A DNA stretch of 64,000 nucleotides from the sequence record ON210137.1. One strand, written 5' to 3'. The position numbers and the translations under genes were made by a program. This DNA is from Escherichia phage EC150. Below are positions 4,520-60,038 of this stretch, piece after piece (the stretch's first letter is position 1; each line of letters starts with the position of its first letter). Below the pieces are notes generated by a model. That model was not told where the DNA came from and made no database searches. It saw nothing but the letters and a program-made list of their open reading frames with translations.

Positions 4520-5007
4520 CTAACAAAACGCAACGCATCAATTTTGAAGGTAAAGAATACGAAATAGACGCTCGTGCAAGATTCGTTGCGCGCGATTCTA
4601 ACGGAACCATCTGGGCGTATGAGGGAAAGCCTGCATGGAACGATTGGTGCGGCCAGTGGGGATATGCAATTGGCGATTCACTTTGGTGTAAGCAAATTGG
4701 TGATGGAAAGATGTTCAAAGAGAATAAACCATCATCACGTGATTCATTGAAGGAAGTCGAATCAATCAAAATCCAAGACCAAGCGCCATCGACAGATAAC
4801 CAATACGCAGTCGGGCAACGTGACATCGAGCAACTCGACGAGGGCGGCTATTATACGCGCCACATCTATGCCATGACGCATGAAGGACTTTGCAGCAAGT
4901 CGGACATCGCCGCTGAACTGGCCCATCGTGACTTACAAATCGACCTTCTCAAGATAGAAGTGCAGAACTTACGAAACACCCTGTTAAATACTTGGAGCTT
5001 AAAATGA
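4516..5007 (+). CDS. hypothetical protein (163 aa)
   Basis: ORF in same-strand array; ATGA overlap. Confidence 0.5.
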   Translation: MTNKTQRINFEGKEYEIDARARFVARDSNGTIWAYEGKPAWNDWCGQWGYAIGDSLWCKQIGDGKMFKENKPSSRDSLKEVESIKIQDQAPSTDNQYAVGQRDIEQLDEGGYYTRHIYAMTHEGLCSKSDIAAELAHRDLQIDLLKIEVQNLRNTLLNTWSLK

Positions 5008-5429
5008 TACAACGTTACGACCTGACATATGATGTGGTATCAGAAGATTGCTCCATCACTCCCGTTCCAGAGAGTCATGAAGGACGTTTTGTTGCATATG
5101 AGGACTATGCCGCGCTGGAAGCGAAATACAGTGAAGCGCAACGCGAGTTGGTTGCATTACGCTCACAGGTCCGTGATGCATCGGTGCTTGTTAAGCAGTT
5201 GCACGACGTTGTTGCTACTATAGGCGTGGATGATGATGCGCCGAAGGAGGAAGCGTGGACCGTGTGGCTTGGTGGCGCGAATCCGGTGCCTGGGAAGATG
5301 GTTGAGTTTGAATTACTCAACGGTTATAAATCAAAAGAGGCCGTCCCTTCGGATAATTTGAACTGGGGTGCAGTGGCAAGCCCGACTGGCGCAAAGATTG
5401 TTGCTTATCGGGTCGTTAAGGAGGGGTGA
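5004..5429 (+). CDS. hypothetical protein (141 aa) sharing a C-terminal domain with 3340-3849
   Basis: Internal ATG overlapping upstream stop, GGAG 6 nt upstream; C-terminal ~58 aa paralogous to 3340-3849 product. Confidence 0.55.
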   Translation: MIQRYDLTYDVVSEDCSITPVPESHEGRFVAYEDYAALEAKYSEAQRELVALRSQVRDASVLVKQLHDVVATIGVDDDAPKEEAWTVWLGGANPVPGKMVEFELLNGYKSKEAVPSDNLNWGAVASPTGAKIVAYRVVKEG

Positions 5430-6209: not shown

Positions 6210-6575
6210 TTGATACGCCTAAAATACGGCTAAAAATTAAGCGTATCATGGCTGCAGGCCGCGTCGTTCCTGGATTCTTCTTTTTAAAATTGGTACACCC
6301 TTACGTCATGATACGTCATGGTTTTTTATCCGTATCAGTGTACAGCCCTTGCCGCGCCTGGCTTGTACATTAATCTTACGGATGATACGGATAAAACTGG
6401 GCATCGTTATATATAAAACTCCAAAAATAAATAAACTCCATTTTAAAAACATTTATATTAATTTTTTTCATATCCTCATACTTATGTTAATTTATATATT
6501 TAACGTATCATCCGTAAGATATAAGTAAAAACAAAGACTTGCGGCAATACGGATGATACGTCATGATACGCTTCA
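6210..6575. repeat. repeat-flanked AT-rich element, copy A
   Basis: Multiple copies in both orientations of CGTATCATCCGTA / TACGGATGATACG (9-mer unit TCATCCGTA) flanking a ~100-bp AT-rich core (6400-6500); homologous to 22190-22460. Confidence 0.6.
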
Positions 6576-6717
6576 ACCAGCCAGCAGCGGCTAAGTCATT
6601 GATTTGCATAACAAGCGGCGAAAGGGATGGATTTCTTTTATACGTATCAAACAGTACACCACGCACCACGGTCCGCTATTCATTCAGTACTATGATTTGT
6701 GTACGTTTACAGCCAAT

Positions 6718-6746
6718 TTGAACATCAATCTGCACTTGAATATAAT
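6718..6746 (+). promoter_or_regulatory. sigma70-type promoter, near consensus
   Basis: TTGAAC, 17-bp spacer, TATAAT, about 50 bp upstream of the ATG at 6799. Confidence 0.55.
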
Positions 6747-6774
6747 GTTCATTCATTGTATAATTCACACTATT

Positions 6775-7981
6775 AATTTGCACTATGGGATTTGCACTAT
6801 GAGTCAAGATTATGTAGCAATGCCTGAAGACTTTGAAGACCCGCGATTTGCAGAGCATAATCAGGCATTATTCGATGAGTTCATTGACCTTGTTATTCAG
6901 GGCCATGACATGCGCGCAGCTTTTGCACTAGTATTTGGCATGGAGGTTGCGACCGATAACTACACTGGCCAGCGAGTCCTCTGCACGCAACGCAATCCGT
7001 ACTACAAGATGCGCTACAAAAAGCGTATGGAAGAGATGCCATTGAAGGAATTGTGGAGCGTAAAGAGTTCCATCCACAATTTAGTGAAGCTTGTGCGTGA
7101 TCCAGAAGTCGCGGCGTCAGCCAAGCTTAATGCCATTCGTGAACTGAATATCATCTACGGCATCACGATGATTGATGAGAATGGCAATAGTAAAATGGGC
7201 CGTTCCATGGACGATTTCTACAAGGATTTTGGAGAGGCAGCCAAAGAGGGTGAGCAATTCTCCCGCCACTAGCCAATTTGCACTATAAAACGGCCCTAGA
7301 ACACATTTTCTCCACTTCTAGGGCCATCGGTAATACGACGGGGAAGGTTACAACCATAAACGCGTTAGAAAGTGTATTATTATAAGTCATCTTTTAGTCA
7401 CTTTACGTAACAATTTACGACCTTCCGCCGTCCAGTCGAACGACTCCACCAGCAGATTTGCACTATAACCTAAGACGATGCGCCCTTTCTCGTTATCGAC
7501 CCGCCAACAAGTCTCGAATAGCATTCGATTTGCACTATTAACTATCGCCGCAACGCGCGCTGGGTAAGCGCAATTTGCACTATGGTCGTAAAGGGATAAG
7601 GTGCGACCACTTCCGATGGACAACGTAGCGATGAGAATAAGCGTATTCATAAGCCACCAATTTGCACTATGAAAAGCGACCCCGAAGGGCCGCCATTCGA
7701 TTAGATGATCTGGAATGTGTATGACTTGTTGCCGAACTCGAAGTTCAAGCGCCCAGCTTCCTTAAGCTTCATGCGGAAGCGAATGTGCTTGCTATCCGGT
7801 AATCCCAGCGCGATGAAAGCTACGCGGACCGATTTGAACTCGCCTACACCCTCGACCATAACGCCGTTACGGGTGAGACGCTTTTGCGCCACTTCCTTAT
7901 TATCCCAACTTTTTGCAATGCCTTCGCTATTCGAACGGCGATGGGAAGAAGTTCCATTTTGCACTACGCAATTTGCACTAT
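6775..7981 (+). repeat. array of 9 same-orientation copies of an AATTTGCACTAT-like 11-12-mer
   Basis: Copies at 6775, 6790, 7275, 7456, 7528, 7572, 7659, 7956 and 7970; irregular spacing; two copies overlap the start of the 6799 gene. Confidence 0.6.
6799..7272 (+). CDS. hypothetical protein (157 aa), possible regulatory or DNA-binding protein
   Basis: ATG embedded in a motif copy and downstream of the near-consensus promoter; function is inference only. Confidence 0.5.
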   Translation: MSQDYVAMPEDFEDPRFAEHNQALFDEFIDLVIQGHDMRAAFALVFGMEVATDNYTGQRVLCTQRNPYYKMRYKKRMEEMPLKELWSVKSSIHNLVKLVRDPEVAASAKLNAIRELNIIYGITMIDENGNSKMGRSMDDFYKDFGEAAKEGEQFSRH

Positions 7982-54426: not shown

Positions 54427-54453
54427 ACAAAAAGGCCGCCCATTAGGACGGCC
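54427..54453 (-). terminator. putative terminator after accessory operon
   Basis: Imperfect hairpin GGCCGCC/GGACGGCC preceded on the plus strand by an A-run (U-run in the minus transcript). Confidence 0.35.
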
Positions 54454-54469
54454 ACAGATTCACGATTCG

Positions 54470-55021
54470 TTATACGGTGTACGGAGTACCGTCTTGATTC
54501 AAGCGCACGATAAACTTAAGGTCGACGCCAATAATATCACGCGTGTCAAAGATCACATAGTTGTAGCGACGTTGACCAGCAATGTTAGGATTGGTGTGGG
54601 AGTCGGTGATGACTTCCTGCGCAACCTGAATATGTTCGTTCTTAAAGAACTCACGCCATTCGGCAAGTTCTGCGGCAGTCACGTGCATGCCAAGGTGGCT
54701 AACCTGATTATCGTGCGCATCGATGTATTCAATGTTTTCGTTAATCCAGTTGCAGCCCTTTGTGTAGTCAAGGATTTCAAGCTCAAGAGGCTTACCAGCG
54801 CTGCCATCAGTTCCGTTTCCAGCTTGATAGTTGAAGCGTAAATCAGCTTCGTTGGTGCAATCGCCGCGCTGGCCTTTAAAGTCATCAGATTCAAATACGC
54901 GACCAGTAGCAACAACGTGATCATGGAACCATTCTGTCAGGCCGATTTTAGCCAGGAAATTCTGTGCGCGCTGAGCACCTGGGATTGACAGGGCGATTTG
55001 TTCAATTTTAAAATGTGGCAT
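54470..55021 (-). CDS. VOC/glyoxalase-fold protein
   Basis: FKIEQIALSIPGAQRAQNFLAKIGL and VSHLGMHV fit the two-module pattern of glyoxalase-like proteins. Confidence 0.4.
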   Translation of the reverse strand: MPHFKIEQIALSIPGAQRAQNFLAKIGLTEWFHDHVVATGRVFESDDFKGQRGDCTNEADLRFNYQAGNGTDGSAGKPLELEILDYTKGCNWINENIEYIDAHDNQVSHLGMHVTAAELAEWREFFKNEHIQVAQEVITDSHTNPNIAGQRRYNYVIFDTRDIIGVDLKFIVRLNQDGTPYTV

Positions 55022-55117
55022 TTTGTTTCCTTAATTAAATATTATTGATTAATTACTGTGTTATCTTCGTCCTGTTTCTTTTCAGGAGCGGGTGTGACAA
55101 CTTCAAATGTTCGTGAT

Positions 55118-55801
55118 TTATTTCCCAAATGGAATATCAGTACCAGACATAAAGCGCCATGCGCCCGTAATTAAGATATGGCGAATGAAGTCAGCAATTA
55201 CTTGCGGCTCAGTCTCCAATCCATTCATCAGTGCCTTTTTCTGGTATTCAGCAGCATACTCAGGAGTCCAGCCGCGAGTCGCGCAAACAGCATCTTCAAT
55301 CTGTTTGGACATGCCAGTACCACGTAGCTTGTTAGGACTAATAGAGAATACCGTGATGCCGTATTTAGGCGTAAGCTCGTGAGCCATCTGCTTGCTAATC
55401 ATAAGCGCAGCAGCCTTGGATGCATTATAACACAAGCTGGACGTCATAGGAATGTGCGCAGCGTTAGAAACGATATTGATCACAAAACCTTTGTTGTCGA
55501 TAAGACTTTTCAGCGCGGCTTGAGTCGTGTTAACGAAAGAGAATGCGTTGGTGTGCATAACGCGATTGAACTCTTCGTAGTTAACATCTTCGAACCAGTT
55601 GTTGGAGTTGACGCCAGCGCAGTTGATCAAGCCTTCTACATCATATGGGCTTAAAATTTCTTTCATCTGTTTAGCGTCGCGGACGTCATATCCGTATGCT
55701 GAATCGATGCCAAGCACGTTATGACCGTAAGCGCCAAGGGTGTCAAAAATAGATTTACCAAGACCGGAATTGGAACCTGTTACAACAATTACTTTTTTCA
55801 T
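55118..55801 (-). CDS. short-chain dehydrogenase/reductase (classical SDR)
   Basis: TGSNSGLGK cofactor-binding motif, NCAG, catalytic YNASK. Confidence 0.8.
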   Translation of the reverse strand: MKKVIVVTGSNSGLGKSIFDTLGAYGHNVLGIDSAYGYDVRDAKQMKEILSPYDVEGLINCAGVNSNNWFEDVNYEEFNRVMHTNAFSFVNTTQAALKSLIDNKGFVINIVSNAAHIPMTSSLCYNASKAAALMISKQMAHELTPKYGITVFSISPNKLRGTGMSKQIEDAVCATRGWTPEYAAEYQKKALMNGLETEPQVIADFIRHILITGAWRFMSGTDIPFGK

Positions 55802-55866
55802 TTATTTATCCTTTTTGGACTTCGTTTCGATGAGATAAATATAACTCATCGAAACGCACAAGTAAA

Positions 55867-56739
55867 CTATTTATTGAAATTAATATTATGGGTGTTGACA
55901 AGACGTTCACACATGGCGCTGTAAACACCATCGTCGTGTATTGAGTCTTCGTGCTTCAGGCCGCTGATTGCGAAGCGTGTAAGCTTGACAATCTTAAGCT
56001 CGAACAGATGCCACATGTGGTAGTCTTCCGGCGTTTTCAACGTTACGCCATTAGGGAAAAGCACCTGCATAACCTGGCCTACCATCACAGCGTTATCGCC
56101 ATAGACAGCGTTGCGCTCACGAAAGGTTGCTGCCATTGCATCAAGAATATCGGCGGCAGTTGCCGGAGATTGTTCAACTTCCACAGCCTTAGTCTCTTCT
56201 TGCCCTGTTGCGCTTGGATCAATTGCTAATTGTTGCACCACTTCACCTGCCTTGCAAAGATTAAATGTAAAAGCGATTTTATTTTGAGCAACGGAATTAT
56301 AATACAATGCTTCATCTTGCATCCGCGCGAGTACGTCTTGTCGGTCGTCGAATACGTTGATGATTCGATAATCGCCGTGGCGCAATGCGTGCGATAGCCA
56401 TGCAGATTTCATAATAGTTGATGGACGTTTGTCGCCATAGTCTCTCATCTTGATTGTAAATTCATCAAAAGGAAAAACATTGTCCAGACGTTCAAAAGTC
56501 ACTTGTCTGTATTTTTCTGGCCTTGCAGTCCAATATTCAACCGCCTCACCGCGAAGAGATGCCGACTCTACTGCTGATGCAATGTGAGGATAGAACTGAT
56601 CATAACCAATACCGCTATGATAGTCATCATAGTCTGACAACGGACCTGCCACCTTGATGCGGTCTAAGCGCCAACGGTCATCAAACAGCGTTCCGTCAAG
56701 GTCGAATACGTTTAAGATTTCGCTGTTTTTAATGCTCAT
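55867..56739 (-). CDS. HAD-superfamily phosphatase (T4 Pnk phosphatase-like) fused to an uncharacterised C-terminal domain
   Basis: VFDLDGTLF motif I; later DDRQDVLARM resembles the Pnk phosphatase domain; C-terminal ~140 aa unassigned; 4-nt overlap with upstream ThyX-like gene. Confidence 0.65.
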   Translation of the reverse strand: MSIKNSEILNVFDLDGTLFDDRWRLDRIKVAGPLSDYDDYHSGIGYDQFYPHIASAVESASLRGEAVEYWTARPEKYRQVTFERLDNVFPFDEFTIKMRDYGDKRPSTIMKSAWLSHALRHGDYRIINVFDDRQDVLARMQDEALYYNSVAQNKIAFTFNLCKAGEVVQQLAIDPSATGQEETKAVEVEQSPATAADILDAMAATFRERNAVYGDNAVMVGQVMQVLFPNGVTLKTPEDYHMWHLFELKIVKLTRFAISGLKHEDSIHDDGVYSAMCERLVNTHNINFNK

Positions 56740-57539
56740 CCTTTTGATACTCCATCTTTAGCAACTGGATTGTTGGTGATTGGCATCGCACTCCAAAACT
56801 GGATGCGCAACTCTTCTTGCTGTGACGTGGTATCCATCCAATCACGATACCAAGGGCAATGGGCTTTGCCATGACGAGGAAACGCGCATTTACCCATACC
56901 GATGCATTGCGGCTGTAATAATGGATTTGCCCACGGGTGCACCTTGAGGACTTCCGCAACCATTGCGCGGAATACTTCTTGATACTCGCCTTGAGTGCGC
57001 GTGCACAAGCGGTTTGACGCCATCTGCTGCAGCGTGCGCAAGTTGAACTTTGCCATGATATGCGTTTGCATATTAGAAGGCAACACGGCACGTGCATCTT
57101 GAATCTCTGCGCCAGCCGCGCGAAGCTCTTGATACAAAGCATCGATAGTCGCCATCGCATCATCCCACTTCTCTGCCAGTTCAGCGGCCTTCTCGTCATG
57201 ACGAGTCCATCCCTTTGGATCATCCTCTGGGTAAGTGAATTTAGCAGGACGAATCGCATCAAATGCAGACGACTCCTGAGCGCGGCTGGTGCGTTCTTGA
57301 TATGCGCCTGTGCGTGTGCGTACCATCTGATGGGTCATGTTCTTTGATACATCTGTGATATCAAAGATATAGTCCACAAAGTCAAAAGGCGACTTGATTG
57401 TATCAAGCATGTAGCGCCAATGCTCTTGCTTCTCTGATTCCGTCATCTCAGAGACAGGCTTACCAGTCATGCGCGTGTTCTTTGTTTCCAGCAAAAGGTC
57501 AAGTGCATCTTGGGTGTATCGAATTAATTCAACTTTCAT
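56736..57539 (-). CDS. thyX: flavin-dependent thymidylate synthase (ThyX)-like protein, divergent
   Basis: 267 aa; QMVRTRTGAYQERTSR aligns with the ThyX signature region but His of RHR is Thr; C-terminal TRTQGEYQ...HPW resembles the ThyX SHAQ.E...CPW region. Confidence 0.65.
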   Translation of the reverse strand: MKVELIRYTQDALDLLLETKNTRMTGKPVSEMTESEKQEHWRYMLDTIKSPFDFVDYIFDITDVSKNMTHQMVRTRTGAYQERTSRAQESSAFDAIRPAKFTYPEDDPKGWTRHDEKAAELAEKWDDAMATIDALYQELRAAGAEIQDARAVLPSNMQTHIMAKFNLRTLQQMASNRLCTRTQGEYQEVFRAMVAEVLKVHPWANPLLQPQCIGMGKCAFPRHGKAHCPWYRDWMDTTSQQEELRIQFWSAMPITNNPVAKDGVSKG

Positions 57540-57552
57540 TTTAATTATCCTA

Positions 57553-57999
57553 TTAACGGTAATTCACTAGTTGCTGATCACCAGAGAAGGTGCAATGATA
57601 AACGAATTGTGCGTTATAAAGCAACTGAAAACTTTTCTTTGGTTCATTATTAGAACTCATCGATGTAAAGATTTCTGCACCAGAACGGTTTTCACCAATC
57701 AGATTAATAAAGCCGCCAGTTGAACGAGGCTGGACGAAAGTGAAACGTTGCATCCACGGAGTACGGTTGGCACCTTTCCCTGTGAATCCCTGAATCTGAA
57801 TATTCAGACCTTCTTGCTCGTTCACACCGATGTAAGTGGTAATCTTCGCACCAGTCGTTGCTGCGGTCTTACCGTCCATCGCTTCGCAATCGTAAACAGC
57901 GATTGAATCGGAAGTACGGATGGCAGCTTCAGTCGCTTCCATATACATGGTGCCGAGAATAGCAGTTGCGGCAAGCGCGATTCCAGTGATTCGTTTCAT
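57553..57999 (-). CDS. secreted protein of unknown function (148 aa)
   Basis: Signal-peptide-like N-terminus MKRITGIALAATAILGTMYMEATEA; two Cys in mature part. Confidence 0.5.
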   Translation of the reverse strand: MKRITGIALAATAILGTMYMEATEAAIRTSDSIAVYDCEAMDGKTAATTGAKITTYIGVNEQEGLNIQIQGFTGKGANRTPWMQRFTFVQPRSTGGFINLIGENRSGAEIFTSMSSNNEPKKSFQLLYNAQFVYHCTFSGDQQLVNYR

Positions 58000-58064
58000 T
58001 TCCGTTTCCTCTATGAGTTCTGCTTCAATGATTAAAGTATACGCCCATTGAAGCAGAAAGCAAA

Positions 58065-59060
58065 TTATTTATTAGCAATATAAGCAAATTTTTGATAGTT
58101 ATTTGCTTTGATGAGTTTTTCAACTTCAACAAGGTCATGAGCGACGTCATCAAGCAAAATGTTGCGCCAGGTAGCAAATCGACCGACACTAAACACGTTC
58201 AAATCCATGGTCAGCTGCAGGAGTAGGGCGTGTCGCAAGTCTTTCGGAATGTCGACAATCTTGCCATATTTCTGGTCGACCTTTTCAACTTCTTCAAGAG
58301 CAATGTCACTCCATGAGAGGCCAAAAGCTGTCAACACTTCGTCGACTTCTGCGCGCAGCTTGATGTCACGGTAACGAGTGATGCCGCCAGCGGCTTCAAC
58401 TGCAGCTTCACTCACGCTGACCAAAGGAATTGTTTCAATGATCAGTGTGTCGCCAGTGATTGATGCGCGGTAAGTTCTGACGGAGTAGTCAGGGAAGTAA
58501 ATTGTTTGATACAAATCACACTTACGTTTAATCTTAAAGCGGTAAACGCGAATGTTTGCTTTATCAAATGAGAAATCAAGCTTTTGATCAATCCCAGCCA
58601 GCTTCATCATGACTGGCAGCGGCGACGTGTTGATGATTGGCGTCTCGCTATAGCCGCAAAGAGTATCAACCGGAGTATTAAAGAATATGCGGTCACCCAG
58701 TTTGTCGACAAGCTGATCATAAAAGTCATCAGGCGCAATATAACGTGTTGCAGTCTTAAGCTTCATGATTGAACGGCTGCCAAACTGATTGGTGACCTTC
58801 ATGGAATACATATTGGCAAGGTTGATTGGGCAATGGTCGTGGTAGTAGTTGCCGCGAAAATACACAGCCTTGTCAACTGTCACGGCCTTGAAAGGGATTC
58901 CGGTAATACGGCTTACTTCTTCGCCGCGAAAGCGTAGAAGCGCCTTGTGCTGTTGCGCTCGTTCCCCTGCTTCGTACACAATAGAGTTCGGGAAGTGACA
59001 CGCTGTGATAAGTCCTGCCAGTCCGCCGCCGATAATCATTACAGGTTGTTTCATGTTCAT
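58065..59060 (-). CDS. FAD/NAD(P)-binding oxidoreductase
   Basis: N-terminal Rossmann dinucleotide-binding motif VMIIGGGLAGL; 331 aa. Confidence 0.65.
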   Translation of the reverse strand: MNMKQPVMIIGGGLAGLITACHFPNSIVYEAGERAQQHKALLRFRGEEVSRITGIPFKAVTVDKAVYFRGNYYHDHCPINLANMYSMKVTNQFGSRSIMKLKTATRYIAPDDFYDQLVDKLGDRIFFNTPVDTLCGYSETPIINTSPLPVMMKLAGIDQKLDFSFDKANIRVYRFKIKRKCDLYQTIYFPDYSVRTYRASITGDTLIIETIPLVSVSEAAVEAAGGITRYRDIKLRAEVDEVLTAFGLSWSDIALEEVEKVDQKYGKIVDIPKDLRHALLLQLTMDLNVFSVGRFATWRNILLDDVAHDLVEVEKLIKANNYQKFAYIANK

Positions 59061-59137: not shown

Positions 59138-59165
59138 GAAAAAAGACCCACAACAAGTGTGGGTC
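59138..59165 (-). terminator. rho-independent terminator after Lys/Ala/Glu-rich gene
   Basis: 8-bp stem GACCCACA/TGTGGGTC, 5-nt loop, U-run in the minus-strand transcript. Confidence 0.5.
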
Positions 59166-59192: not shown

Positions 59193-60038
59193 TTATTCCG
59201 CTTGATCACCGTCTTCGGCATCTTCGTTGGATTCAACATCGACAAACTCGATGTGACCCATCTCTTCCAGCTTGCTCAGGTAGGAGCGAACTGAAGCGCC
59301 AAACAGTTGATCTTTAACTTTTTCGCCCAGCTCATCGATAGACTGTGCCACGCCAACTTCGCCTTCTTTGATCGCCGCCAGAACGCGTCCACGGGTGGAA
59401 TGCTCTTGCGGCTGACTCAGGCCATTGCCAGTGTAGATGAAGTGAGTAGCTTTTGCACGACGCTGACCATTGGCCTTTTTGGCAGCCTTACGTTCTGCGA
59501 TGGCTTTGCGACGTTCTTCAGCTTCTTGCTTACGCTGTTCTTTCTGCTGTTCTGCAGCTTCTTTCGCCGCAATCTTAGCAGCTTCACGCTCTGCCTTGCG
59601 TTTCGCTTTGGCTTCTTCTTTGGCCTTCTCTTTTTCGGCCTTCGCTGCAGCACGGGCTTGATCACGCTCTGCTTTCTTAGCAGCAGCTTGTTCAGCTTTC
59701 AGGCGCTTGGCTTCTTCTTTAGCCTTTGCCTTTTCGATTTCTTTCGCTGCTTTAGCGGCTTCACGCTCTGCTTTCTTAGCAGCAGCCTTTTCTGCACGCT
59801 CTTTGGCCTTCTTGGCTGCTTCTTCAGCACGCTTCTGAGCCTTCTCATCAGCAGCCTGCTTGCGTTTCAGGGCAGCTTCTTCACGCTTGGCTTGTTTTTC
59901 CTGCTCACGCTTCTGGCGTTTTTCTTCGGCTTCTTTCTTTTTAGCCAGACGTTTTTCTTCAGCCACGCGACGACGTTCTGCTGCAGCTGCTTGTTTTTCT
60001 TCTTTAGATAATACTTTGATTGCTTCGGCCATGTTCAC
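59193..60038 (-). CDS. Lys/Ala/Glu-rich low-complexity protein with acidic C-terminal domain
   Basis: About 190 aa of charged helical repeat (EEKR..KAK.EA...) then a ~90-aa C-terminal domain ending in an acidic tail. Confidence 0.6.
   Translation of the reverse strand: MNMAEAIKVLSKEEKQAAAAERRRVAEEKRLAKKKEAEEKRQKREQEKQAKREEAALKRKQAADEKAQKRAEEAAKKAKERAEKAAAKKAEREAAKAAKEIEKAKAKEEAKRLKAEQAAAKKAERDQARAAAKAEKEKAKEEAKAKRKAEREAAKIAAKEAAEQQKEQRKQEAEERRKAIAERKAAKKANGQRRAKATHFIYTGNGLSQPQEHSTRGRVLAAIKEGEVGVAQSIDELGEKVKDQLFGASVRSYLSKLEEMGHIEFVDVESNEDAEDGDQAE

Follow-up and report, generated by a model that had tools for sequence, protein, structure and literature searches.

A Pnkp-type HAD phosphatase and its helical partner domain in a Wifcevirus gene cassette: a candidate step in thymidine modification

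What is a phosphatase related to that of T4 polynucleotide kinase/phosphatase (Pnkp) doing directly behind a gene for a ThyX-like thymidylate synthase homologue, and what is the purpose of the domain fused to it? The question is raised by one gene of Escherichia phage EC150 (sequence record ON210137.1), in the stretch of 64,000 nucleotides that was analysed and is termed the window here. The window is the genome of a Wifcevirus, an Escherichia coli myovirus of the WFH/ECML-117/FEC19 group, with positions 55000-58000 being 93-97% identical to 28 phage records. The gene is termed HAD-ct, for a HAD phosphatase fused to a C-terminal helical domain, and is 97-100% identical among Wifcevirus records. 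HAD-ct starts at an ATG (56739-56737) that overlaps the stop codon TGA (56738-56736) of the ThyX-like open reading frame (ORF) lying upstream, forming an ATGA at 56739-56736. An earlier note on this DNA had seen the coupling and proposed a dedicated nucleotide-processing step after ThyX; the coupling stands and such a step is compatible with the evidence, although the proposal is too narrow, the gene being part of a larger cassette. It is proposed here, with a probability of roughly 0.45, that the HAD phosphatase and its helical partner perform the dephosphorylation step of a thymidine-modification pathway encoded by that cassette, rather than the healing of nucleic acid ends.

A cap-less HAD phosphatase without a kinase

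A search with the whole protein found 217 homologues at E<=1e-3 and a search with its C-terminal domain 1616 homologous cluster representatives at the same threshold, thus the gene is real far beyond chance. The N-terminal module matches the Pfam family HAD_PNKP (PF25109) over residues 11-142 with 33.5 bits against a gathering score of 27.6 (E 5.4e-8). This bears out the Pnk-type phosphatase that the earlier note had placed at the N-terminus, and the two motifs it had read are where it put them, with FDLDGT encoded at 56706-56689 and DDRQDV forming residues 131-136 (nucleotides 56349-56332). In a whole-gene alignment of 58 full-length homologues of 36-90% identity the residues D13, D15, R24, Y40, D47, T71, R99, K111, D131 and D132 are invariant, with R133 and D135 kept in at least 90% of sequences. 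The set of HAD motifs is complete, with Asp13 the predicted nucleophile, Asp15 the acid/base, Thr71 motif II, Lys111 motif III and Asp131/132 motif IV, and judged from these residues the N-terminal module is a complete Mg-dependent cap-less HAD phosphatase that is predicted to be catalytically intact.

An AlphaFold2 (AF2) model made from the 58 homologues has an overall confidence score (pLDDT) of 90 and contains a Rossmann-like HAD fold without a cap domain, which can be superposed on the T4 Pnkp phosphatase. The HAD fold reaches to about residue 175, with residues 151-175 forming a confident beta-hairpin that still belongs to it, and the part of the protein that the earlier note had put at about 140 unassigned residues shrinks to a domain of about 90 (residues 196-285). 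The predicted TM score (pTM) of the full-length model is 0.65 and the geometry between the two domains is uncertain.

With the family profile the best solved relatives are Capnocytophaga Pnkp1 (E 4e-8) and the T4 Pnkp phosphatase (E 1.3e-7 and 1.2e-6). The profile alignment pairs T71-A-R73 with S211-G-R213 of T4 Pnkp, D47 with D187, R99 with R246, K111 with K258 and D131-D132-R133 with D277-D278-R279, whilst the position of T4 D254 is held by a conserved Ser in the HAD-ct family. R24 is probably the counterpart of T4 R176, as both lie 11 residues past the nucleophile. Mutagenesis in the Shuman laboratory is said to have established the importance of these residues in T4 Pnkp.

Likeness of this kind invites the reading that the protein is an end-healing enzyme, in which the HAD clears 3'-phosphates or 2',3'-cyclic phosphates from DNA or RNA ends for DnaQ/DnaE or a host ligase, and the helical domain binds nucleic acid or oligomerises. 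In its favour, the phosphatase domains of T4 Pnkp and Capnocytophaga Pnkp1 are the nearest relatives of the module in both sequence and fold, the residues equivalent to T4 Asp187, Arg213, Arg246, Lys258 and Asp277/278 are kept, the cap-less architecture is typical of HADs that act on macromolecules and the gene lies within the replication region; a conserved face of Arg, Lys, Tyr and Asn residues on the helical domain could also touch a DNA backbone. However, the serine in place of Asp254 departs from the T4 enzyme, the protein lacks a 5'-kinase domain and the annotation of the WFH genome lists neither an RNA nor a DNA ligase. Together with the fusions and neighbours described below this leaves end healing an unlikely account of the gene.

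The absence of a kinase also bears on how the gene is named. Relatives in GenBank and RefSeq are called 'hypothetical', 'phosphatase', 'polynucleotide kinase/phosphorylase' or "3'-phosphatase, 5'-polynucleotide kinase", and phrog_4889, the family to which the gene belongs, has the database name 'polynucleotide kinase/phosphorylase'. As the earlier note had it, there is no kinase P-loop: a regular-expression search found no Walker A pattern (GxxxxGK[ST]) in the protein, and Pfam, NCBIfam and PHROGs gave no kinase family match to it beyond the name of phrog_4889 itself. As a Pnk-type HAD is present and a kinase is not, the label 'polynucleotide kinase' is wrong for both HAD-ct and phrog_4889, which would correct a widespread mis-annotation, and the protein is, on its predicted domains, a two-module phosphohydrolase.

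The helical domain and its partnership with HAD phosphatases

The C-terminal half had been described as lacking any assignable motif, with the possibility that it would turn out to be a known kinase or other enzyme. The description stands and no such enzyme was found: the C-terminal 99 residues have no Pfam or NCBIfam match at E<=10, the domain has no sequence relative in the PDB with either a single sequence or a profile, and with no P-loop present a known kinase or enzyme is ruled out for this half. The homologues were collected with phmmer, using residues 183-290 against 1.84 billion cluster representatives, and 800 of them are found at E<=1e-10. Many stand alone as proteins of 100-175 aa and many others are fused to a HAD; 44 of 113 representatives match HAD_PNKP, and no fusion partner other than HAD recurs among the 113.

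The domain itself is confidently modelled by AF2 as an autonomous bundle of four helices. It is through the relatives just named that it can be placed. Of the 113, 42 match DUF6378 (PF19905) at E<=0.01 over nearly its full length (best E 2.1e-5), with scores of up to about 24 bits, none reaching the gathering score of 27.1. A Foldseek search of BFVD returned the domain's own family first, followed by several DUF6378 proteins and one Nmad1 protein (probability 0.82-1.00, query-normalised TM score 0.49-0.67) and one further weak DUF6378 match (probability 0.51, TM score 0.38), the E-values of these matches being 0.01-0.7. No solved structure of DUF6378 or Nmad1 was found, and a search of the literature on DUF6378, DUF1599 and Nmad1 found no report of function. 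The profile matches and predicted structures place the helical domain as a probable divergent relative of DUF6378/Nmad1, and as neither a MazG protein nor a kinase.

Three other identities were considered. A MazG-like NTP pyrophosphohydrolase is not supported by any relationship in sequence, profile or fold, and the ExxE/ExxD metal motifs are absent. A metal site of HD type made from H244, H263 and H268 is ruled out, the histidines not being kept in the Pbunavirus homologues. Some relatives of the domain match PHROGs labelled 'phosphofructokinase' (phrog_474 and phrog_1167), which were treated as uninformative names.

In every subgroup, Pbunavirus included, the residues R209, Y213, N216, P229, G231, K252, R255, D265, S266, D269 and Y273 are conserved. 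By helical periodicity they probably line one face of helices 1, 3 and 4, and their conservation points to a pocket for ligand binding or catalysis more than to a structural role alone. Cellular homologues were looked for with a single-sequence genome scan, which gave only two tiny contigs of Xanthomonas pisi DSM 18956 (637 and 381 bp). These carry fragments that are 100% identical to the C-terminal domain of the window and are most likely Wifcevirus-like contamination of a draft assembly.

The association of the two domains was followed in 85 loci, made up of 80 viral-contig loci picked by similarity to the helical domain and 5 phage records, by searching all ORFs with profiles of both halves. 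The domains are fused in 26 loci and in 54 are encoded by separate, adjacent and co-directional genes with the HAD first, in some of which stop and start abut or overlap, giving a fused or adjacent pair in 80 of the 85. One of the five exceptions is a contig end and another an ORF-calling overlap; in locus L036 the HAD is about 2.3 kb upstream, elsewhere in the locus, and in a Microbacterium phage it is three genes upstream of the helical domain. The remaining exception is Rhizobium phage RHph_TM39, where the helical domain is fused to a different and smaller HAD with the motifs DFDG, NTCRG and YIDDR, that matches phrog_1238 and, weakly, Pfam Hydrolase_6, with no match to the Pnkp-family profile. 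By its motifs and family matches this is an independent fusion to an unrelated HAD subfamily.

That the partners have repeatedly been fused, split and replaced argues strongly for the helical domain acting in physical association with a HAD phosphatase, and a helical domain that is also joined to a HAD outside the Pnkp type counts against end healing. The record of Ralstonia phage PY059YO380 (PP358256.1) has its HAD gene unannotated at 6469-7155 (+), where the profile matches at E 3e-41, and over that DNA has a minus-strand 'hypothetical protein' at 6430-6921 that is probably a mis-call.

The gene cassette and modified thymidine in related phages

Proteins encoded next to HAD-ct in the window were searched with phmmer against the same 85 loci. 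A collinear order is found across the loci, running flavoprotein, ThyX-like protein, HAD, helical domain, short-chain dehydrogenase/reductase (SDR), a VOC-like protein of 183 aa, DnaQ-like exonuclease and DnaE (DNA polymerase III alpha). The SDR is present in 83 loci, the VOC-like protein in 79, ThyX in 77 and the flavoprotein in 67, counts that should be read with the fact that many of the loci are truncated contigs. A wider scan of 50,697 phage records found the helical domain in 363 of them and the flavoprotein in 361; the counts agree genus by genus, and Rhizobium phages of an unrelated family make up 9 and 8 of them. The content at the edges varies: Pbunavirus, a Salmonella phage and a Ralstonia phage have the flavoprotein, ThyX-like protein, HAD and helical domain without the SDR and VOC-like genes, and a Microbacterium phage has a FAD-Rossmann protein, HAD, SDR, VOC-like protein and helical domain by DnaE with no ThyX. 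That the invariable neighbours are small-molecule enzymes (flavoprotein, ThyX-like, SDR, VOC-like) is again at odds with end healing.

It could be argued that HAD-ct is a housekeeping phosphatase with a structural or regulatory tail, and that the genes of the cassette have stayed together by chance, passed on with the DnaE module and without a common pathway. Most loci do come from a single phage lineage and the edge content does vary, SDR and VOC-like genes being absent in Pbunavirus and ThyX in Microbacterium phages. Yet of all parts of the cassette the helical domain is conserved best, better even than the polymerase, with a median identity to the window of 66% against 40% for DnaE, 45% for ThyX and 32% for the HAD (in loci chosen by similarity to the helical domain); the pair survives fission, fusion and partner replacement, and the flavoprotein accompanies the helical domain even in the unrelated Rhizobium phages. 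A housekeeping role is therefore considered very unlikely.

The ThyX-like protein scores 83.1 bits against TIGR02170, under the equivalog cut-off of 87.9, and carries the motif R-T-R...T-S-R instead of RHRxxSxxxxSxR, with RTR found in 53 of 61 cassette homologues and T or S at the middle position in 60; the position of His53 in Thermotoga maritima ThyX is Phe in 60 of the 61. These proteins appear to form a distinct subfamily, and the enzyme of the window may not be an ordinary dUMP methylase. The flavoprotein has 1954 matches at E<=1e-3 and belongs to phrog_4828, which is listed as 'unknown function'. Neither Pfam nor the PDB gave a sequence match to it, and among its best 120 matches there is no Pfam domain and no informative name, the named sources being phages or metagenomes. 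The depositors of phage Mansfield call it 'UDP-galactopyranose mutase' (UGM), and both this UGM-like label and the 'glyoxalase-like' label of the VOC-like protein rest on depositors' annotations only. The VOC-like protein has no Pfam or PDB sequence match, and the SDR is generic, being FabG-like by comparison with solved structures.

It is the Pbunavirus relatives that link the cassette to DNA modification. DNA of Pbunavirus F8 resists every tested enzyme with TG in its site (Yee et al., bioRxiv 2025.03.31.646159; PMC12191111). In the DNA of F8 and 14-1 about a quarter of thymidines are replaced, at TG sites, by new nucleosides of 362 and 390 U (bioRxiv 2025.03.31.646159), which have been read as sugar-alcohol and cyclised-pentose adducts of thymidine (PMC12191111). 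Pbunavirus has no known modification genes and none have been assigned (bioRxiv 2025.03.31.646159), and a search of the available literature found no gene assignment for the modification. A 2026 preprint reports that native Nanopore sequencing fails on Pbunavirus genomes, with modified bases blamed. By mass arithmetic 362.3 equals deoxyuridine (dU) + pentose - H2O + H2 and 390.3 equals dU + hexose - H2O, the same formulas being those of thymidine (dT) + tetrose and dT + pentose - H2 respectively, which is arithmetic consistency and not proof. As Pbunavirus, the sister genus of Wifcevirus, shares the core of the cassette and carries a sugar-type thymidine, the cassette is the best candidate for that modification.

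The wifceviruses themselves resist most restriction systems, for a cause that is not known. A published S2 table gives Bas98 36 EcoRI, 6 EcoRV, 93 EcoCFT_II and 82 EcoP1_I sites, and the window has 12 EcoRI and 8 EcoRV sites. Hypermodified DNA would account for the resistance.

By a further alternative the gene would serve the thymidylate branch of the nucleotide pool. The protein would then be a two-step hydrolase of (deoxy)nucleoside tri- and monophosphates, with the helical domain a pyrophosphohydrolase-like or nucleotide-binding module and the HAD a nucleotidase, that either feeds dUMP to ThyX or clears dTMP, dTTP or dUTP. Bacillus phages that exclude thymine from their DNA clear thymine nucleotides with a dTMP nucleotidase and a dTTPase. 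This nucleotide-pool role is considered doubtful. With regard to the nucleotide-processing step of the earlier note, the Pbunavirus data favour hypermodification of thymidine in DNA over simple turnover of deoxynucleoside monophosphates.

A comparison of F8 with 14-1, which carry different adducts, is suggestive with regard to HAD-ct. Between the two phages HAD-ct (gp057/gp58) is 80% identical overall, with 88% for the HAD and 86% for the helical domain, against 96% for DnaE, 98% for DnaQ, 94% for ThyX, 97% for the flavoprotein and 99% for Dda, making it the most divergent larger gene of the 16-kb region. Small ORFs flanking ThyX in F8 (gp58, gp60 and gp61) are 78-82% identical to those of 14-1. 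The Pbunavirus linker is a variable acidic low-complexity stretch in which an AEDA repeat (AEDAAEDAAEDAAEDAAE) is found in F8 only, and this variable stretch explains the difference in protein length (354 against 338 aa).

From the literature and the genomic comparison it is proposed that the cassette builds a sugar-type hypermodified thymidine in phage DNA, with the flavoprotein, the atypical ThyX-like protein, the HAD and the helical domain as the pathway enzymes and the SDR and VOC-like protein as additional tailoring enzymes in Wifcevirus. The enzyme types fit sugar-on-thymidine chemistry, comprising a ThyX-family C5 enzyme, a flavoprotein that is related to a sugar mutase by its depositors' label, a phosphatase, a reductase and a VOC-fold enzyme. 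Through flavin-iminium chemistry the ThyX-like protein and the UGM-like flavoprotein might attach a carbon unit derived from a sugar at C5 of a uracil or thymine nucleotide, after which the HAD-helical pair would strip the phosphate carried over from the sugar-phosphate donor. A plausible step for the pair within the pathway is thus the hydrolysis of the phosphate on a sugar-phosphate-derived adduct, either on the nucleotide or on DNA, and a cap-less Pnkp-type HAD suits a macromolecular substrate. The helical module could supply substrate binding through the face formed by R209/Y213/N216, K252/R255 and D265/S266/D269/Y273, and in doing so may close the open active site of the HAD or deliver the phosphorylated intermediate to it. 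More broadly, it is tentatively suggested that the six-gene block at 54470-59060 is a new pathway for sugar- or alditol-type thymidine that is common, with variations, to Pbunavirus, Wifcevirus, Kylevirus and many uncultured phages that encode DnaE.

A number of points weigh against the proposal. The role proposed for the protein is read from sequence and context, and the modification of Wifcevirus DNA is a prediction. Nearly all loci fall in one broad DnaE-encoding lineage, where synteny may reflect common descent, and as the 80 metagenomic loci were picked for their likeness to the helical domain, that domain looks more conserved than it would otherwise. The cassette also varies in content, Pbunavirus being without the SDR and VOC-like genes and Microbacterium phages without ThyX, and the ThyX-like enzyme could simply make dTMP. 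TG specificity implies at least one step at the level of DNA, yet no DNA-recognition component has been identified in the cassette. The idea of the helical domain as a cap in trans is a conjecture, with a pTM of 0.65 leaving the inter-domain geometry of the model uncertain, and the comparison of F8 with 14-1 is of a single pair.

Features of the locus and comparison with known systems

The coordinates of HAD-ct, its parts and the genes around it are given in Table 1. Two terminator-like hairpins enclose the block of six genes, which encode the flavoprotein, a protein of 148 aa, the ThyX-like protein, HAD-ct, the SDR and the VOC-like protein, and in WFH and Mansfield terminators are annotated at equivalent places. 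The ORF of 148 aa between the flavoprotein and ThyX-like genes was found in five Wifcevirus loci only and has no family match.

Table 1. Features of the HAD-ct locus in the window, with positions on the 64,000-nucleotide stretch
Feature	Position	Strand	Basis or remark
Terminator-like hairpin upstream of the cassette	59145..59165	-	8-bp stem, then T-run
FAD-type Rossmann flavoprotein, 331 aa, first cassette gene	58065..59060	-	phrog_4828 E 7.5e-150; GGGLAG motif
148-aa ORF between the flavoprotein and ThyX-like genes	57553-57999	-	Signal-peptide-like N-terminus MKRITGIALAATAILG
ThyX-like flavin-dependent thymidylate synthase homologue, atypical subfamily	56736..57539	-	Pfam Thy1 E 1.3e-30
HAD-ct fusion gene, 290 aa, ATG start	55867..56739	-	ORF list; phrog_4889 E 8e-122
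HAD phosphatase domain, T4 Pnkp type, residues 1-175	56215..56739	-	
HAD motif I, D13-L-D15-G-T17 (predicted Asp nucleophile and Asp general acid)	56689..56703	-	Read from the sequence
HAD motif IV, D131-D132-R133-Q-D135	56335..56349	-	Aligns with T4 Pnkp D277-D278-R279
Inter-domain linker, residues 176-195	56155..56214	-	pLDDT 55-76; gapped and variable in length and composition
Four-helix C-terminal domain, residues 196-285, DUF6378/Nmad1-like	55885..56154	-	AF2 pLDDT 92.6
Short-chain dehydrogenase/reductase, directly downstream of HAD-ct	55118..55801	-	Pfam adh_short E 2.6e-31
183-aa VOC-like protein, last cassette gene	54470..55021	-	Mansfield 'glyoxalase family'; IPR029068
Terminator-like hairpin downstream of the cassette, before DnaQ	54434..54453	-	8-bp stem with 7 GC pairs, then TTTTT

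Three further observations concern the surroundings of the gene. The 65-nt spacer between the stop of HAD-ct and the start of the SDR gene contains a stem-loop at 55823-55856 (-), with a perfect 12-bp stem and a folding energy of -22.1 kcal/mol (z -5.5, with none of 200 shuffles as stable). As it has no U-tract it is not a standard terminator, and it may be an element of RNA processing, stability or attenuation. Directly upstream of the cassette, 59193-60038 (-) encodes a protein of 281 aa with a globular C-terminus, preceded by some 200 residues of low complexity that are extremely rich in K, A and E and histone-H1-like; Pbunavirus, Kylevirus and the Salmonella phage have a similarly sized gene in this place, and the protein could be a DNA-binding component. 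The annotation of WFH shows no recognisable small-molecule enzymes outside the cassette other than a MazG-like gene, which in Wifcevirus lies about 9 kb away beside the spanin gene. Pantoea phage Kyle has a gene for a MazG-like NTP pyrophosphohydrolase of 96 aa, at 4868-5158 (+), between its ThyX-like and HAD-ct genes.

Pbunaviruses are among the most-used therapy phages against Pseudomonas aeruginosa, and the cassette offers a concrete candidate gene set both for their modification and for the restriction resistance of wifceviruses. It also provides a first functional context for the DUF6378/Nmad1-like helical family, of which viral metagenomes contain more than 1600 cluster representatives. 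If the proposal is true, the Pbunavirus modification would have its genes assigned, Wifcevirus DNA would be predicted to be hypermodified and a DUF6378/Nmad1-type domain would have its first function. Its confirmation would show that DNA can be hypermodified by a ThyX-based route, and would add a new pairing of HAD with a partner domain that is possibly detachable.

Of the known enzymes, T4 Pnkp (PDB 1ltq, 5uj0) and Capnocytophaga Pnkp1 (4xrp) are closest to the HAD of the window in sequence and fold. HAD-ct differs from T4 Pnkp in having no P-loop kinase domain and in its phosphatase being N-terminal rather than C-terminal; its HAD is fused to or lies beside a four-helix domain that Pnkp enzymes do not have, and its genomic partners are metabolic enzymes rather than an RNA ligase or Hen1. 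Similarity to the class B and class C acid phosphatases and related nucleotidases (VSP1 4fyp, AphA 1z5g, class C 2i33) is weaker than that to Pnkp, and HAD-ct has no signal peptide, periplasmic context or alpha-helical cap insertion of the kind found in those enzymes.

The helical domain shares with MazG-type enzymes only the general form of a small four-helix bundle located in nucleotide-metabolism regions of phages. DUF6378 (PF19905) and Nmad1/DUF1599 (PF07659) are, as is the helical domain, small and all-alpha with about 80-90 aa, and they have in common with it the helix 3 motif K-x-x-R; the helix 4 motif D-S-x-x-D is presumably shared with the DUF6378 sequences as well. The protein of the window itself matches neither PF19905 nor PF07659 at E<=10, and the obligatory association with HAD and with the ThyX/flavoprotein cassette is specific to its subfamily, in contrast to DUF6378/Nmad1.

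In known pathways of thymidine hypermodification 5-hydroxymethyldeoxyuridine is made first and is then acted on by the kinase 5-HMUDK, followed by aGPT-Pplase and tailoring enzymes. No family match to 5-HMUDK, aGPT-Pplase or a glycosyltransferase was found among the six cassette proteins scanned, the remaining genes being judged from GenBank annotation. The synthase homologue of the cassette is of ThyX type where the known pathways use ThyA, and the adducts of Pbunavirus are sugar- or alditol-like and restricted to TG where those of the known pathways are amino-acid- or polyamine-like. Both the known pathways and the one proposed here combine an enzyme of a thymidylate synthase family with a phosphorylated intermediate, and if the proposal holds the outcome would also be the same, a bulky substituent on the C5 methyl that blocks restriction.

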